This document shows positions 410 to 41,461 of a stretch of DNA of 64,000 bases, one piece after another. How positions within the stretch are numbered: position 1 is the stretch's first letter; each line of letters starts with the position of its first letter. A program made the translations under genes and the position numbers. Source of the stretch: Escherichia phage vB_EcoM_G2285; sequence record MK327933.1; one strand, given 5' to 3'. The notes beneath the pieces were generated by a model. The model had not been told where the DNA came from. It saw nothing but the letters and a program-made list of their open reading frames with translations, and did no database searches.

Positions 410-988
410 TTAATTACCACGGGCTGCATTAGCAACGGCGTAAGCGTACTGAACATTAGCGTCCTTAAACGTACCTTTAGAGGTATCTATTTCTGCCTTA
501 AAGCCGCCTTTAGCCATAACATCTGCAAATTCTTTACGGAAAGCCATTGCATCAAGACCTTTCCATGTTGATTTATGCTTGGCAAATTCAAGACCGGCGT
601 AGTTGACAGCCTTAGCTAATTTATTATCAATAACCCATTTACCTGCTTTAGGCACAAACTTCGGGCCTTTTTGTTTAGAGAACAGTTTTAAATTCCAGCG
701 ACGAAGGTCACTGTCGGCTTTAACAAAAGCTGCATCTAAGTTACTAGCAACAACATCTTCAATATGAGCAAATTTAAGTCCGTCAACTTCAATATTTAGA
801 TCGTTACGCCAGCGAAGTCCTTCCCAAGCGAAGGCTTTAAAATCAGAAGCCTTTGTAGCTAAGTACCGTTCAATAGGAGCAGTTTTAGGGTCAAAGCCGT
901 TTCCGCCACGATAAGTCCACTCGTCCTTATTAATGCCTTGAGCTTTTCCTGCAAAGGCCTCGGCGATAAATTCTTTATATGTTTTCAT
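410..988 (-). CDS. ipIII: internal protein with N-terminal capsid targeting sequence (IPIII-like, 192 aa)
   Basis: ORF track; starts MKTYKEFIAEA (T4 CTS consensus cleaved by gp21 protease); size close to T4 IPIII; SD AAGGAAAC upstream of ATG 988. Confidence 0.65.
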   Translation of the reverse strand: MKTYKEFIAEAFAGKAQGINKDEWTYRGGNGFDPKTAPIERYLATKASDFKAFAWEGLRWRNDLNIEVDGLKFAHIEDVVASNLDAAFVKADSDLRRWNLKLFSKQKGPKFVPKAGKWVIDNKLAKAVNYAGLEFAKHKSTWKGLDAMAFRKEFADVMAKGGFKAEIDTSKGTFKDANVQYAYAVANAARGN

Positions 989-1019
989 TTTTTGTTTCCT
1001 TGTTTGTTTTGATAGAGTA

Positions 1020-1049
1020 ATTATACCATATTAATACTTAAGCGTAAAC
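1020..1049 (-). promoter_or_regulatory. T4 early-type promoter (GTTTAC -35, 18-nt spacer, TATAAT -10) upstream of ipIII-like gene
   Basis: Minus strand reads GTTTACgcttaagtattaatatggTATAAT; plus-strand gtaaac at 1044..1049 and attata at 1020..1025. Confidence 0.5.
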
Positions 1050-1052
1050 AAT

Positions 1053-1313
1053 TTAAGCTTTACCGCCAGAAATAATTCCGAAGTTGTTAAAATCGTATCC
1101 AATATCGTCAACATCTACTTTAGGACTTGCTACAACATAAGCAATTTCACTACGTTTTGCATAGGTGTTGATTTCTTTACCATCGCCACCTAAGAAAGAA
1201 TACCCATTACGCTTTAATGAGCCAAAGTCTTCCGCATCACCAATGAAAGCTTTAACTTTAAATTTGGGGTCTTTGACATCTGCTTCAATGATAAATTCTT
1301 GATACATTTTCAT
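1053..1313 (-). CDS. ipII: internal protein with capsid targeting sequence (IPII-like, 86 aa)
   Basis: ORF track; N-terminus MKMYQEFIIEA matches CTS pattern; ATG confirmed at 1313..1311. Confidence 0.55.
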   Translation of the reverse strand: MKMYQEFIIEADVKDPKFKVKAFIGDAEDFGSLKRNGYSFLGGDGKEINTYAKRSEIAYVVASPKVDVDDIGYDFNNFGIISGGKA

Positions 1314-1321
1314 TTTTTTCC

Positions 1322-1735
1322 TTAGTAAATTGATTTACCATAGTATTTGTACCAAGTCGGACGTTGAGCAATTTTTTCATCTAAGCGTGCTTGACTTATC
1401 GCAATGGACGCTTCGGACGGGACGTAATTATTACGAAATTCTACAGGAATGTCGGAAATATCCTGGACAGTCGTGTCCTTGATTTTGAAACCACGTTTCA
1501 AGCATTCAGCGATTAGCTCGATTTGACGTAAACGTAAAAATTCGAGTTTGTCGTAAAAGAATGTTACGTGACCTGTGCCTAAGATAAATGTTGGAGGGAT
1601 TTTAAAATCCTTTACACGTTTACCGTTTTGAACATGTTTACGGACTGAACCAAATACGCGTGGTAATTCACGATACTCAGCCATAAGATGTTGGTCGGTC
1701 AGTTCAGAAACAAGTGTTAAATTGATACGGGTCAT
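1322..1735 (-). CDS. denV: endonuclease V, pyrimidine dimer DNA glycosylase (DenV)
   Basis: Translation [35 protein letters not shown] nearly identical to T4 endonuclease V; ORF track start at 1747 is a TTG extension, ATG at 1735 with SD GGAGGAAA. Confidence 0.9.
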
Positions 1736-1793
1736 AATTTCCTCCAAGTAGTTGATGAATGTATAGTATCAAAGTCCTTGGAGGAAGTAAACA

Positions 1794-2075
1794 CTATTTT
1801 TCTGAAGCGCCTGAAATATATTTTTCAAGACGTTGTTTCATTAGCGAGCCGTTCTTAGCGATTTCTTCCGGTTTATCGCACATACGCAACAAGGCTTCAA
1901 GCTTAGCGATATTGCTGGTACGTTCAAATTTGCGAGTATCTATCTTACTAGCAAGTTCAGAAATACGTGCTAATAGACTTTCGGCTTCAACCAAAGCTGC
2001 ACCTAGCTTAGTTGCAAATGTGTCAGTAGCTTCGTTAAGAATAGATTCTGATAAAAATTCACTATATGTTTTCAT
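1794..2075 (-). CDS. internal-protein-like protein with CTS ([10 protein letters not shown]), wedged between denV and e
   Basis: ORF track (1794..2090, TTG extension); in-frame ATG at 2075 gives N-terminus [10 protein letters not shown]; ATG overlaps stop of gene e (ATGA). Confidence 0.6.
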
Positions 2076-3746: not shown

Positions 3747-4052
3747 TTATTTTCCTCGACATTCTTTAATGAAATTTTCTAGATTGGTAGATTCAATAGC
3801 TTTTTTACGAGCTTCTGCGTGTTCTTCTTCGGTCAATTTACGTTTATAATTGACCCAGACATTATGGTCGAAACTAGTCGTGGCATATAATAACAAAGCT
3901 CCGACGAATAATAAAAACGGTGATAAGAATACAAAACCAGGAACACCATCCATATCGTAAGCCTTTTGTAATACTGCAACAGAAAGGGCTGCGTAAAAAA
4001 GTGATGCAAATATTGTTAAAAGACCAATTCGGTTGGTTTCGCCTAATTTCAT
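3747..4052 (-). CDS. small membrane protein (2 predicted TM) ending ...NLENFIKECRGK
   Basis: ORF track; SD GAGGAG before ATG 4052; hydrophobic segments; C-terminal motif family. Confidence 0.5.
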   Translation of the reverse strand: MKLGETNRIGLLTIFASLFYAALSVAVLQKAYDMDGVPGFVFLSPFLLFVGALLLYATTSFDHNVWVNYKRKLTEEEHAEARKKAIESTNLENFIKECRGK

Positions 4053-4067
4053 AATATTCTCCTCATG

Positions 4068-4112
4068 TTTAATAGGACTACTATAACATAGTCCTATAAT
4101 TGTGTAAACAGT
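4068..4112 (-). promoter_or_regulatory. PeSL-like cassette: early promoter (GTTTAC -35 / TATAGT -10) with inverted repeat ATAGGACTA..TAGTCCTAT
   Basis: Minus strand GTTTACacaattATAGGACTATGTTATAGTAGTCCTAT, followed by the 18-mer CATGAGGAGAATATTATG also found at 8533..8550. Confidence 0.6.
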
Positions 4113-5106: not shown

Positions 5107-5358
5107 TTAAATTTCACGACATGCGATATTATATTCATCCCAGAGGTCATCATATGAAGCCTCTACCAAAGGAACGATTGTACCGTTTATGTCTTCATTA
5201 TAAGGGCAAATTGTACAGTGCGCATCTTCGAATCGGATGCCTTTGTGTTCAGATTTTTTATAACGCATATCGAATATCTTTGCAAACTTTTCACGAGTAA
5301 TGGTTTTACTAACCAATTTGGTTCCGATACTTTCGTAATAAATCATTGTGGACTCCAT
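5107..5358 (-). CDS. hypothetical protein (83 aa)
   Basis: ORF track; preceded by PeSL-like cassette. Confidence 0.45.
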   Translation of the reverse strand: MESTMIYYESIGTKLVSKTITREKFAKIFDMRYKKSEHKGIRFEDAHCTICPYNEDINGTIVPLVEASYDDLWDEYNIACREI

Positions 5359-5363
5359 TTAAT

Positions 5364-5408
5364 TTGATAGGACTACTATAACATAGCCCTATCTTGTTGT
5401 AAACTGTT
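5364..5408 (-). promoter_or_regulatory. PeSL-like early promoter/stem-loop cassette
   Basis: gataggactactataacatagccctat followed by gtaaac (5399..5404); same architecture as 4068..4112. Confidence 0.55.
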
Positions 5409-9611: not shown

Positions 9612-9985
9612 GAATGTTCCACCATTTCAAAGGTATGAGCATCAACAATATGATACCAGTCAAAATTTTCTTCTGCGTTTTTATAAATTTCGCGAAGAGC
9701 CTCAACAGTTTTTCCTGTAGCAACAAGGTCGTCAATACCACCAAGAGGATAACAGTCACCAGCAAACAGAAGGAAATTAATAGTTTCTGTAGGTTCTGGA
9801 TGCAGAACACCGTTATCGTCTACCACTTCAAAGAAAGTGTAAGAAGGAGTACAAGTTTTAATCCAAGCCCATGCTTGAGCTACTGAATCAAATGGTCTGC
9901 GTATCAAACGACAATCAGGGTCTTTAGAAGGATTTGCTTCAAAATCAGCATATACGTGGTATTTCATTTTACTCACCTTTTGCAA
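9608..9985 (-). CDS. hypothetical protein (about 120 aa)
   Basis: ORF track; alternative start ATG 9967 (MKYHVY). Confidence 0.5.
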   Translation of the reverse strand: MQKVSKMKYHVYADFEANPSKDPDCRLIRRPFDSVAQAWAWIKTCTPSYTFFEVVDDNGVLHPEPTETINFLLFAGDCYPLGGIDDLVATGKTVEALREIYKNAEENFDWYHIVDAHTFEMVEHS

Positions 9986-10175
9986 TTTTATCCATAACGA
10001 TAGCGATTAAGCTGATTAGAAATGCTACTACCAATGAGATAGAGTTTTCAGTTGTTGTCAGTAGTCCACAAATGAATCCTACAAACATCGAAAAACTAAA
10101 AGCCATTGAAGCAATTACTACAGCAACATTACGAATCAGTTCAGCGCGTTTCATTTTATTTCTCCATTTACTCAT
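9969..10175 (-). CDS. small membrane protein (68 aa)
   Basis: ORF track; two hydrophobic segments. Confidence 0.45.
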   Translation of the reverse strand: MSKWRNKMKRAELIRNVAVVIASMAFSFSMFVGFICGLLTTTENSISLVVAFLISLIAIVMDKIAKGE

Positions 10176-10180
10176 TTGTT

Positions 10181-10222
10181 TTGATAGGACTACTATAACA
10201 TAGTCCTATAGGCTTGTATACC
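10181..10222 (-). promoter_or_regulatory. PeSL-like cassette (inverted repeat ATAGGACTA..TAGTCCTAT, weaker -35)
   Basis: ttgataggactactataacatagtcctat immediately upstream of gene start 10175. Confidence 0.5.
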
Positions 10223-10223
10223 T

Positions 10224-10499
10224 TTATTTCAAATATATTGCGTATTTTTTATAGCCACCAGGCTCGTGTCGAAGACCTTTATCATTCGCAAAACGTTGAA
10301 TGTTATTGAACTGATTTTCATCAAGTTCGGATGTGTCAAATATGAAAAAGTTTCGTTTGTTACCAAGCGTGATATGCGGAGTTAAGTCAATGTTATACAA
10401 ATTAAGAATATCAGCAATAACCTGTTTGGCCGCTTTGTTAATTTTCACACCAGACGATTCTGAGATGAATTCGTTGAAAGTTTTCATTTTAGGTTCCAT
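10224..10499 (-). CDS. internal-protein-like protein with CTS (MKTFNEFISE)
   Basis: ORF track; CTS motif begins at second ATG (10487); hyperplastic position next to 57B. Confidence 0.55.
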   Translation of the reverse strand: MEPKMKTFNEFISESSGVKINKAAKQVIADILNLYNIDLTPHITLGNKRNFFIFDTSELDENQFNNIQRFANDKGLRHEPGGYKKYAIYLK

Positions 10500-10507
10500 T
10501 TGGTTGT

Positions 10508-10550
10508 TTTGATAGGACTACTATAACATAGTCCTATCATGTTGTAAACT
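10508..10550 (-). promoter_or_regulatory. PeSL-like early promoter/stem-loop cassette
   Basis: gataggactactataacatagtcctat plus gtaaac at 10544..10549, overlapping stop of upstream gene. Confidence 0.55.
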
Positions 10551-10857
10551 ATTTTATTCCGCGTGATGCAATTGTGTTCTGTCGTTTAACACCAGTTTGT
10601 TTAAAGTCATGATTGTCGATTTGATCGGTACGAGCAACTCCGAATGATGATTTGATTTTAGCTTTAGATCCTTTAGTTATAGAAATAAACATCTCGGAAG
10701 CCCCTTTCTTAAAGTCCGAAGCGATTACTTCAACACCGTTCTTAGCAAGTGACTTCAGAATTGCATCCGCAAACTCATCGTCAAGACCTACCTGAGTATA
10801 AATAATAAATGTCTTTGGTGCAGCAGCTTCATTGATAAATTCTTTAAATGTTTTCAT
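10549..10857 (-). CDS. internal-protein-like protein with CTS (MKTFKEFINEA)
   Basis: ORF track; ATG 10857; N-terminal CTS motif. Confidence 0.6.
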   Translation of the reverse strand: MKTFKEFINEAAAPKTFIIYTQVGLDDEFADAILKSLAKNGVEVIASDFKKGASEMFISITKGSKAKIKSSFGVARTDQIDNHDFKQTGVKRQNTIASRGIK

Positions 10858-10883
10858 TTTATTTCCTTTAATTTTGTTTTGTT

Positions 10884-10926
10884 TTGATAGGACTACTATA
10901 ACATAGCCCTATAACATTGTAAACTG
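10884..10926 (-). promoter_or_regulatory. PeSL-like early promoter/stem-loop cassette
   Basis: gataggactactataacatagccctat plus gtaaac at 10919..10924. Confidence 0.55.
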
Positions 10927-10937
10927 TTTTGTGAAAA

Positions 10938-11623
<686 letters not shown>

Positions 11624-11627
11624 TTTA

Positions 11628-12362
11628 TTACCTTAAGATTGTTTCAATTTTAGAATAAAGCTCTTCTAAAGAGCCGTCGTTTGTAATAACTAAATCGCCT
11701 TCTTCAATAGGCAACCCAGCTTCTGTAATATGTTTATCAGTGGATTCCGTACCAGAGCGAACCACATGAATAACTGTAGCACCCATCGCTCTAGCGGTTT
11801 CCATTTCATGGACTTGGCGTGTATCTGTTACAACATAGTAATCGAAATCACTTCCAATATAATCCATATAGTTTAATGCAAAAAGCTTAACCCAATACAT
11901 ACGGTCAAATAAATTAACGACAACATCCGTACCGAGGGCTTGCATAAGACGGCGGATTGACCATGTGTCGTTGATATTATTTATAACTTCACGCAGGGCT
12001 TCATATGGTTTAATATCTAGATACGAATATCCACCTTCTAACGATGATAATACTTTAACATTATTAATCGGTAAATATTGACTTTGCAAATAAATTAGCG
12101 CTTCTTCCAATAATTCAATAACATCCAACTTATTGAGATTTAATGGTGTTTCACGGTCGTATCCAATGCCTTCAAAGTATTCGTATTTCAACTCTGTGAA
12201 TACATCAGGATTTTCAGCATGCCTACGTCCCCAGGCTATTGCTAGAGCGTCTTTAATTGGATATGCTAATTGGTATTTTACGGATTTAAAGTTTGAATTG
12301 ATGTAATCAGCAGTAGTGTCTTTACCACTACGTTTGATGCCACTTAAAAAGATTAGCTCCAT
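11628..12362 (-). CDS. 1: deoxynucleoside monophosphate kinase (gp1)
   Basis: P-loop GIKRSGKDT; size and synteny with T4 gene 1. Confidence 0.9.
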   Translation of the reverse strand: MELIFLSGIKRSGKDTTADYINSNFKSVKYQLAYPIKDALAIAWGRRHAENPDVFTELKYEYFEGIGYDRETPLNLNKLDVIELLEEALIYLQSQYLPINNVKVLSSLEGGYSYLDIKPYEALREVINNINDTWSIRRLMQALGTDVVVNLFDRMYWVKLFALNYMDYIGSDFDYYVVTDTRQVHEMETARAMGATVIHVVRSGTESTDKHITEAGLPIEEGDLVITNDGSLEELYSKIETILR

Positions 12363-39549: not shown

Positions 39550-39974
39550 TGTATCTTATCCCTGAATCTTATGAATTGGTACTCGAAAATGTCGAAGCAC
39601 TTATTCCTGAAGCACAGGGCCGAATCGATGCATTGTCTTCTGCTCTCGATATTGACGATATAAATACTATTATCGAGAACATGCTTGAAACTGAAACGGA
39701 TTTAGCTGTTGCAATGGCTTCCATTATTAATGAAGAACAGTTAAATGAGTTTATCGTTAAACATGTTTCTTCTCGCGGTGAAGTCACTCGCACTAAAGAC
39801 CGTAAAACTCGTGAACGTAACGCGTTCCAAACCACTGGTCTTTCTAAAGCAAAACGTAGACAAATCGCTCGTAAGGTCGTTAAAGCTAAAAAAGCTAACC
39901 CTTCAGGCCAAGTTAAAGGCTTGCGTAAGCGTAAAAAAGCTCTTAAACGTCGTAAAGCATTAGGATTAAGCTAA
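39549..39974 (+). CDS. 68: prohead core protein gp68
   Basis: 141 aa; synteny. Confidence 0.85.
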
Positions 39975-40615
39975 TGAATAAACCCGAGTTACTTATTGAA
40001 ACTTGGGGTCAACCCGGTGAGATTATTGATGGCGTTCCAATGTTGGAATCTCATGATGGAAAAGATTCTGGCTTAAAACCAGGGCTTTATATAGAAGGTA
40101 TTTTTCTTCAGGCAGAGGTTGTTAACCGAAATAAGCGTTTATATCCTAAACGCGTTTTGGAAAAAGCAGTAAGTGACTATATTAAAGAACAAGTCGCAAC
40201 CAAACAAGCCCTTGGAGAATTAAACCATCCACCTCGTGCAAATGTTGACCCCATGCAAGCCGCTATCATTATTGAAGATATGTGGTGGAAAGGAAACGAT
40301 GTATATGGACGTGCTAGAATTATTGAAGGCGACCATGGTCCCGGCGATAAATTAGCTGCTAATATACGAGCTGGTTGGATTCCAGGTGTTTCCTCTCGTG
40401 GTCTTGGTTCTTTAACCGACACCAATAAAGGGTACCGTATCGTGAACGAAGGATTTAAATTAACCGTCGGCGTAGATGCCGTATGGGGACCTTCTGCTCC
40501 AGATGCTTGGGTTACTCCTAAACAAATATCAGAATCAGAGAATTCGGTGGAAATCACCAAAAACAGTGCTGATGAAGCATTTAAAGCTCTCGCAGAGAGT
40601 TTAAAAGCATTATAA
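39974..40615 (+). CDS. 21: prohead core scaffold protein and protease gp21
   Basis: 213 aa; synteny. Confidence 0.9.
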   Translation: MNKPELLIETWGQPGEIIDGVPMLESHDGKDSGLKPGLYIEGIFLQAEVVNRNKRLYPKRVLEKAVSDYIKEQVATKQALGELNHPPRANVDPMQAAIIIEDMWWKGNDVYGRARIIEGDHGPGDKLAANIRAGWIPGVSSRGLGSLTDTNKGYRIVNEGFKLTVGVDAVWGPSAPDAWVTPKQISESENSVEITKNSADEAFKALAESLKAL

Positions 40616-40648: not shown

Positions 40649-41461
40649 ATGATCAAAGAACAACTTTTGAAAGAAGCTCAGAACATCGAGACTTCAGTTG
40701 CTCTTAATAGTGTTTTCGAATCAGTAGAACTGTCTCCGGACGTTAAAGCTAATTTCAGCACTGTATTCGAAGCCACCGTTAAGCAGGAAGCAGTCAAACT
40801 GGCTGAATCTCATATCAAAGCCATCGCCGAAAAAGCCGAAGAAGAAGTTGAAAAGGCTAAAGAAGATGCTGAAGAGAAAGCTGATAAAAAATTGGCTGAA
40901 CAAGCTTCTAAATTCCTAGACCATCTTGCAAAAGAATGGCTCGCAGAAAACCAAATCGCAGTTGATAAAGGCATTAAAGCTGATTTGTTCGAATCCATGC
41001 TTGGTGGTCTGAAAGAACTGTTTGTTGAACATAACGTTGTTGTTCCAGAAGAATCTGTAGATGTTGTAGCAGAAATGGAAGAAGAGCTGGCCGAACATAA
41101 AGAAGAAACCGCTCGTTTGTTCGAAGAAGTTACCAAACGTGATGCATATATCAATTACGTTCAGCGTGAAACCGCTATTAATGAAAGCGTAAAAGACCTG
41201 ACTGAATCTCAGAAAGAAAAAGTTATTGGCCTGGTTGAAGGTATGGATTATTCTGACGCATTTGGTACTAAGTTAACTGCTATTGTAGAAATGGTTAAAG
41301 GTTCTACTAAAGAAGAAGCCGCTATTACCGAAAGTATAAATACAGTTGACAATGACGCTGCCGGTCTTAATTTTGTTGCCGAAGCAGTTGACACTACCAC
41401 AACTCAGGTAGAACAGAATTCTAATGTAAGTTTATATGCGAAAGTCGCATCTCGTTTCTAA
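40649..41461 (+). CDS. 22: prohead core scaffold protein gp22
   Basis: 270 aa acidic coiled-coil protein; synteny. Confidence 0.9.
   Translation: MIKEQLLKEAQNIETSVALNSVFESVELSPDVKANFSTVFEATVKQEAVKLAESHIKAIAEKAEEEVEKAKEDAEEKADKKLAEQASKFLDHLAKEWLAENQIAVDKGIKADLFESMLGGLKELFVEHNVVVPEESVDVVAEMEEELAEHKEETARLFEEVTKRDAYINYVQRETAINESVKDLTESQKEKVIGLVEGMDYSDAFGTKLTAIVEMVKGSTKEEAAITESINTVDNDAAGLNFVAEAVDTTTTQVEQNSNVSLYAKVASRF

Follow-up and report, generated by a model that had tools for sequence, protein, structure and literature searches.

Ip7 and Ip9, two capsid-targeted internal head proteins encoded beside 57B in an RB69-like phage, as candidate injected inhibitors of host restriction

Four small internal proteins with an N-terminal capsid targeting sequence (CTS) have been characterised. 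T4 IPI* (Ip1), Ip2 and Ip3 are blockers of GmrSD type IV restriction enzymes, each acting on its own variant and giving no protection against the others (Silas et al., 2025; PMC12373910), and a 2025 preprint reports that Bas37_0260 blocks McrBC (bioRxiv 10.1101/2025.11.20.689424). In the case of T4 IPIII the first ten residues are enough for head targeting, with residues 4 and 7 of the CTS serving as determinants of targeting and residues 8 and 10 as determinants of processing, for which the protease gp21 cuts after L/I-x-E; the prohead core is the site at which CTS proteins are loaded (PMC9026906). IPIII that lacks the CTS still works in the cytoplasm (Srikant et al., 2022; PMC9391042). A second feature of T4-type phages that bears on the locus described here is the PeSL cassette, in which a unit made of an early promoter and a stem-loop that overlaps its -10 element is repeated around small accessory genes and at the boundaries of indels (Arbiol et al., 2010, PMC2839356; Comeau et al., 2014, PMC4122927).

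The DNA that was analysed, referred to as the window, is a 64,000-nucleotide stretch of Escherichia phage vB_EcoM_G2285 (MK327933.1). Its source is an RB69-like Mosigvirus, a T-even phage, and the best DNA match of the region under study is to Mosigvirus (RB69-like) phages, at ~91% over 1.5 kb. On the minus strand the dNMP kinase gene gp1 (gene 1; 12362..11628, Pfam DNMK) is followed by 57A (11623..11393, Pfam GP57), by 57B/Acb1, by an ORF of 102 aa, by an ORF of 87 aa and by a gene for a small membrane protein, beyond which lie two conserved small ORFs, tRNA-Met and tRNA-Asn. A preliminary description of the locus had placed two tandem genes next to 57B/Acb1, and both were recovered as minus-strand ORFs, of 102 aa at 10857..10549 and of 87 aa at 10487..10224, while their neighbour at 11393..10938 was identified as Acb1, an anti-CBASS 2H phosphodiesterase (Pfam Acb1, E = 1.3e-58), which bounds the slot on its left as a conserved anchor. 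The conserved right anchor is the membrane protein (9969..10154, minus strand; PHROG 1692, E = 2.2e-31), which is trna.4-like and is annotated in Shigella phage Shf125875 as similar to RB69 trna.4. Read mechanically, the second ORF reaches an upstream ATG at 10499 (MEPKMKTF...). This ATG falls within a ribosome-binding-like stretch, AAATGGA, that is common to the regions downstream of all three PeSLs of the locus, and thus 10487 is the likely start.

Neither gene is a new kind of element: both are already known and belong to long-named families at the classic internal-protein locus, and many genomes carry homologues with the annotation "internal head protein". The names Ip7 and Ip9 reportedly go back to Repoila et al. 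in 1994, and for their use here we follow database annotations and papers citing that work. One passage of a recent paper, crediting Repoila et al. (1994), speaks of "at least 10" Ip families (PMC12373910). The protein of 102 aa is encoded by ip7 and is the precursor of internal head protein 7, with 92 aa and a pI of 9.65 in its mature form. It matches PHROG 2667, "internal head protein," over positions 1-102 (E = 3.3e-39), and is assigned to the known Ip7 family, which takes its name from a protein of phage RB15. Its identity is 84-94% with named Ip7 proteins (WG01, AS6, RB32, Enterobacter phages) and 93% with the protein in the same slot of phage T2, and the annotation of Shf125875 traces the name explicitly ("similar to RB15 Ip7: CAA84464"). 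Members of PHROG 2667 are found in T2, RB32, WG01, Shf125875 and T4-like phages of Enterobacter and Citrobacter. The RB15 type and the window protein share their length, the CTS and the slot beside 57B, and nothing of substance differs between them. For ip7 the dN/dS is 0.15. In the predicted structure (pLDDT 68) residues 12-72 form a ferredoxin-like core, while the C-terminal ~30 residues (74-102; window 10549-10638, minus strand) are basic and predicted to be disordered, with a pLDDT below 50. This tail is nearly invariant in the family (H83, F85, Q87-G89, K91, Q93, N94, I96, G100-K102) and is a candidate interaction motif.

The protein of 87 aa is encoded by ip9 and is the precursor of internal head protein 9, with 77 aa and a pI of 9.30 in its mature form. 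It matches PHROG 7673, "internal head protein" (E = 2e-48), and is assigned to the known Ip9 family, likewise first named in RB15, as a diverged allele. An ENA protein and the alleles of mogra and phiE142 share 97% identity with it, but Ip9 of the RB15/RB33/VR7 type only 69-76%; for RB15 Ip9 itself (P0025, UniProt Q38376) the aligned identity is 74%, and BLASTP gives 71% with E = 2.8e-31. PHROG 7673 is also represented in VR7, RB33, Moon and KM16. The two types have a common fold-length domain, CTS and locus, and differ by a three-residue deletion after the CTS and by an exchange of Q for E at residue 57 of the window protein. As a result, residues 55-57 (window 10317-10325, minus strand) read L-D-E in this allele and L-D-Q in the RB15 type, and the L-D-E, which lies at the start of helix 2, is an internal match to the gp21 motif. 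Across the family alignment 53 of the 87 residues of the window protein are invariant, and the dN/dS is 0.08; with such values ip7 and ip9 are taken as genuine genes under constraint. The predicted structure (pLDDT 82.7) is a helix-strand-strand-helix-strand-strand sandwich. A separate observation concerns phage OLB35 (MH992122.1, around 75885-76133), in which an annotated 77-aa "ip7 protein" (P0014), without CTS as annotated, is an in-frame fusion in which the middle part of Ip7 is joined to the last 33 residues of an Ip9 of the window type. The fusion apparently arose by a deletion that joined ip7 and ip9.

An exhaustive profile search with Ip9 retrieved 18 proteins, part of them with and part of them without CTS. 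Relatives of the latter kind (P0049 and P0056, at loci L039 and L040) start directly at the domain and have a stop codon just upstream of it, so that they truly lack the tag. In a third setting the Ip9 domain forms residues 662-734 of an 861-aa protein (P0052, L037:6001-8586; PHROG 3867), whose relatives come from Ackermannviridae (Kuttervirus-like) phages of Salmonella, Klebsiella and Dickeya; like the small proteins without CTS, these are unannotated. The existence of relatives without CTS means that the Ip9 body can function without packaging, and the distribution suggests that the CTS was added onto a pre-existing phage domain.

Both window proteins begin with the T4 CTS pattern, as had been noted from the sequence. 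The tags MKTFKEFINE of Ip7 (10828..10857, minus strand) and MKTFNEFISE of Ip9 (10458..10487, minus strand) each contain F4, F7, I8 and E10 and present the gp21 motif I-x-E at positions 8-10, so that cleavage is predicted after E10, with A as the next residue in Ip7 (I-N-E/A) and S in Ip9 (I-S-E/S); neither has an Asp at position 10. Six-frame translation of the window yields five matches to the motif MK[TM][FY]xEF[IL]xE, as against none in 200 shuffles, and every one of the five stands at the N-terminus of a minus-strand ORF, the other three lying in a second locus (410-2075). Within the family alignments of Ip7 and Ip9 M1, K2, F7, I8 and E10 are invariant, while position 4 alternates between Y and F. 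The machinery for loading and processing is encoded on the plus strand of the same window: the prohead protease gp21 (39974..40615; Pfam Peptidase_S77, E = 2.9e-107) and the scaffolding core protein gp22 (40649..41461; Pfam T4_CASP, E = 1.5e-89). The window also encodes gp23 (Pfam Gp23, E = 1.6e-121). Furthermore, the mature forms of Ip7 and Ip9 are basic, as are the T4 internal proteins. From T4 biology we infer, on good grounds, that both proteins are packaged and cleaved by gp21. A literature search found neither a proteomic report on Ip7 or Ip9 nor direct evidence for their presence in virions or for their cleavage.

Each gene had been proposed to have its own PeSL promoter, and repeat, promoter and hairpin scans agree with this. 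The 28-nt PeSL core, TGATAGGACTACTATAACATAGTCCTAT, is present in five copies in the window at a maximum of one mismatch, where none is expected. Three of these are in the ip region, all on the minus strand: PeSL 1 (10885..10924) precedes ip7, PeSL 2 (10510..10549) lies between ip7 and ip9 and precedes the latter, and PeSL 3 (10182..10221) lies between ip9 and the gene for the trna.4-like membrane protein. In PeSLs 1 and 2 the early promoter reads TTTACA-17-TATAGT and is TG-extended, while PeSL 3 reads TATACA, and in all three a hairpin of 10-12 bp spans the -10 element (z = -3.9 to -5.4). In their promoter and hairpin, in their repetition around small accessory genes and in their position at indel boundaries they do not differ from the known PeSLs and constitute a textbook example. 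The T4 late-promoter motif (TATAAATA) was not found on the coding strand directly upstream of ip7 or ip9, the nearest occurrence being at 11978-11985, inside gene 1. The sequence therefore gives no sign that ip7 and ip9 are expressed while the prohead is being assembled.

The locus beside 57B had also been called hypervariable, which a comparison of 34 loci (the window and 33 viral contigs encoding 57B) bears out. In 30 of them, the window included, one to three CTS genes stand directly downstream of 57B, in 17 different arrangements, while two close relatives have none. The mature parts of all 58 CTS ORFs in the compared loci fall into 17 unrelated families, among which Ip9 (10 of 34 loci) and Ip7 (8 of 34), occurring in either order, are among the commonest cassettes of the slot. 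The two relatives with an empty site (L003 and L004) encode flanking proteins that are 98-100% identical to those of the window and the two distal small ORFs at 88-98%, but have no ip gene. Instead, a single PeSL is present (L003:4440-4545, compared with window 10150-10955), the left part of which corresponds to PeSL 1 of the window and the right part to PeSL 3. Such a hybrid bears the clean signature of PeSL-PeSL recombination. The origin of the ip7 allele points in the same direction. Window Ip7 shares 93-94% of its residues with the allele of T2-like Tequatrovirus phages, whose gp1 is only 63% identical, whereas the nearest Mosigvirus relatives (gp1 98%) have an Ip7 allele that is only 66% identical to that of the window. 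At the DNA level the T2-like segment (10542-10952, 88% identity) comprises exactly ip7 and its upstream PeSL, which indicates that 10542-10952 was exchanged between the genera as a single cassette. A T2-like Ip7 cassette in a Mosigvirus backbone, together with the hybrid PeSL, thus argues that the diversity of the slot arises by cassette exchange and not by rapid substitution, and the window is a clean example of such PeSL-bounded exchange.

Scans of Pfam, NCBIfam and PADLOC returned nothing above the curated cut-offs for either Ip7 or Ip9, and profile searches of PDB sequences nothing below E = 0.6; marginal family matches to Csn2 (E = 0.006) and GlnA (E = 0.099) were taken as chance. That Ip7 and Ip9 are diverged paralogues of each other was rejected, as hhalign of the two families aligns the CTS only. 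The mature domains likewise have no sequence similarity to Ip1, Ip2, Ip3 or Bas37_0260, with the CTS alone aligning. Bas37_0260 is a 77-aa CTS protein (MKTYQEFIAE...) encoded in the same 57B slot of phage KarlGJung/Bas37 (MZ501089; L036:5554-5787, minus strand). It was considered as a possible Ip7 or Ip9 and rejected, being a member of a separate family (cluster F7) that is also found at the 57B slot in two IMG/VR loci (L006 and L034).

What Ip7 and Ip9 do in the cell can be approached by comparison with these characterised proteins. The preliminary description regarded IPI as the only internal protein with a known function, which is outdated, since Ip2 and Ip3 act as inhibitors of distinct GmrSD variants (PMC12373910) and Bas37_0260 inhibits McrBC. 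By contrast, its term "candidate injected anti-defence effectors" is a fair one in view of the CTS, the 57B slot, the individual PeSLs and bodies of no known fold or enzyme family. Ip1, Ip2, Ip3 and Bas37_0260 resemble Ip7 and Ip9 in the N-terminal CTS, in small size and in their hypervariable loci, and presumably in the route of delivery; the lack of similarity between the mature domains confines the analogy to tag and locus. The reading that we favour, with moderate confidence, is that Ip7 and Ip9 are injected, target-specific inhibitors of modification-dependent (type IV) restriction enzymes, encoded in interchangeable PeSL-bounded cassettes. The sequence shows a separate PeSL early promoter from which each gene is transcribed. 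As in T4, the CTS would then load the proteins into the scaffolding core of the prohead, where gp21 would cut after Glu10, and the mature proteins of ~9-10 kDa would stay beside the DNA inside the head and be injected together with it. In the new cell each may, by analogy, bind and block one host nuclease that attacks DNA with sugar-modified hydroxymethylcytosine, with GmrSD- or McrBC-like type IV restriction enzymes as the likely class of target. The genes are inserted, deleted and swapped by recombination between the PeSL repeats on either side of them, so that each phage comes to carry its own set. Injected internal proteins act ahead of phage gene expression, and in this way they decide on the survival of modified T-even DNA over its first seconds in a wild host. 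The targets of Ip7 and Ip9, once found, would extend the map of inhibitors and nucleases and help to foresee which hosts are within the range of therapeutic T4-like phages.

The main competing explanation accepts packaging and injection but places the target outside type IV restriction, in another first-response defence or in host takeover, as for Alt, which is likewise injected and has a non-restriction role. Indeed, ip4-10, which include Ip7 and Ip9, gave no reproducible inhibition when screened against GmrSD variants active on T-even phages, and an apparent effect of ip7 on CLS_011 failed to repeat (PMC12373910, Supplementary Fig. 9). Also against the favoured reading, T2 is restricted by the GmrSD enzymes of ECOR21 and ECOR17 (PMC12373910) although it carries Ip7, so that these two are not Ip7 targets. 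The neighbouring 57B/Acb1 counters CBASS, and thus the region is not dedicated to anti-restriction. However, the GmrSD family is very diverse and few variants were tested, and the DNA of Mosigvirus is arabinosylated (PMC6024577, PMC8594841), whereas the published GmrSD tests were made on the glucosyl-hmC phages T2, T4 and T6; the relevant restriction enzymes may fall outside those sampled in the screen. Since inhibition of type IV restriction enzymes is common to the four small CTS internal proteins characterised so far, it remains the best prediction for Ip7 and Ip9 as well, and a target of another class appears rather unlikely. The predicted folds favour neither kind of target. A more specific version is equally tentative: Ip7 or Ip9 would neutralise a defence other than GmrSD or McrBC, either a sensor of arabinosyl-hmC DNA specific to the hosts of Mosigvirus or a first-response system that is not a nuclease, and the Ip9 body would be an older, portable anti-host domain made injectable by the CTS.

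Two further explanations dispense with a specific injected inhibitor. Ip7 and Ip9 could be generic basic proteins that fill the head, neutralising the charge of the DNA or aiding packaging or ejection, with no specific host target. Such a role would fit the basic character of both mature proteins and the conserved, basic and disordered tail of Ip7, and the lysines of internal proteins contact DNA phosphates in T4 heads (PMC3012670). Yet L003 and L004, with flanks that are 98-100% identical, lack both genes, which are thus dispensable; a generic role has no need of 17 unrelated families; Ip9 has relatives without CTS; and strong purifying selection acts on specific folded domains of both bodies, all of which makes head filling improbable. 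These CTS-less relatives, on the other hand, fit the opposite proposal that the tag is vestigial and that Ip7 and Ip9 are ordinary cytoplasmic proteins, made early and left out of the head, as do the annotation of the OLB35 fusion without CTS and the fact that the visible upstream promoter is of the early type only. Against this, M1, K2, F7, I8 and E10 are invariant across both families despite their differing bodies, which implies selection on the tag, and the first ten residues suffice for packaging in T4 (PMC9026906), so that a vestigial CTS is very improbable.

The second internal-protein locus of the window (410..2075, minus strand), recognised by CTS motif and PHROG matches, contains three more CTS genes, which encode proteins of 192 aa (988..410; PHROG 5341, "internal virion protein"), 86 aa (1313..1053, MKMYQEFIIE...; PHROG 2667, E = 3.7e-21, and PHROG 35655) and 93 aa (2075..1794; PHROG 3499). 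The bodies of the CTS proteins had been described as unrelated, which holds at the sequence level (BLASTP, hhalign): in a BLASTP comparison among the five mature CTS proteins of the window nothing fell below E = 0.9. The 86-aa ORF may be an exception, as a distant Ip7 paralogue: BLASTP detects no relation, but past the CTS this ORF gives a weak alignment to the profile of Ip7 (72% probability in hhalign). Further copies of the PeSL were observed at 4070-4097 and 5365-5392, upstream of an ORF for a 101-aa membrane protein (4052..3747) and of an 83-aa ORF (5358..5107), respectively, and these two ORFs may be further mobile cassettes.
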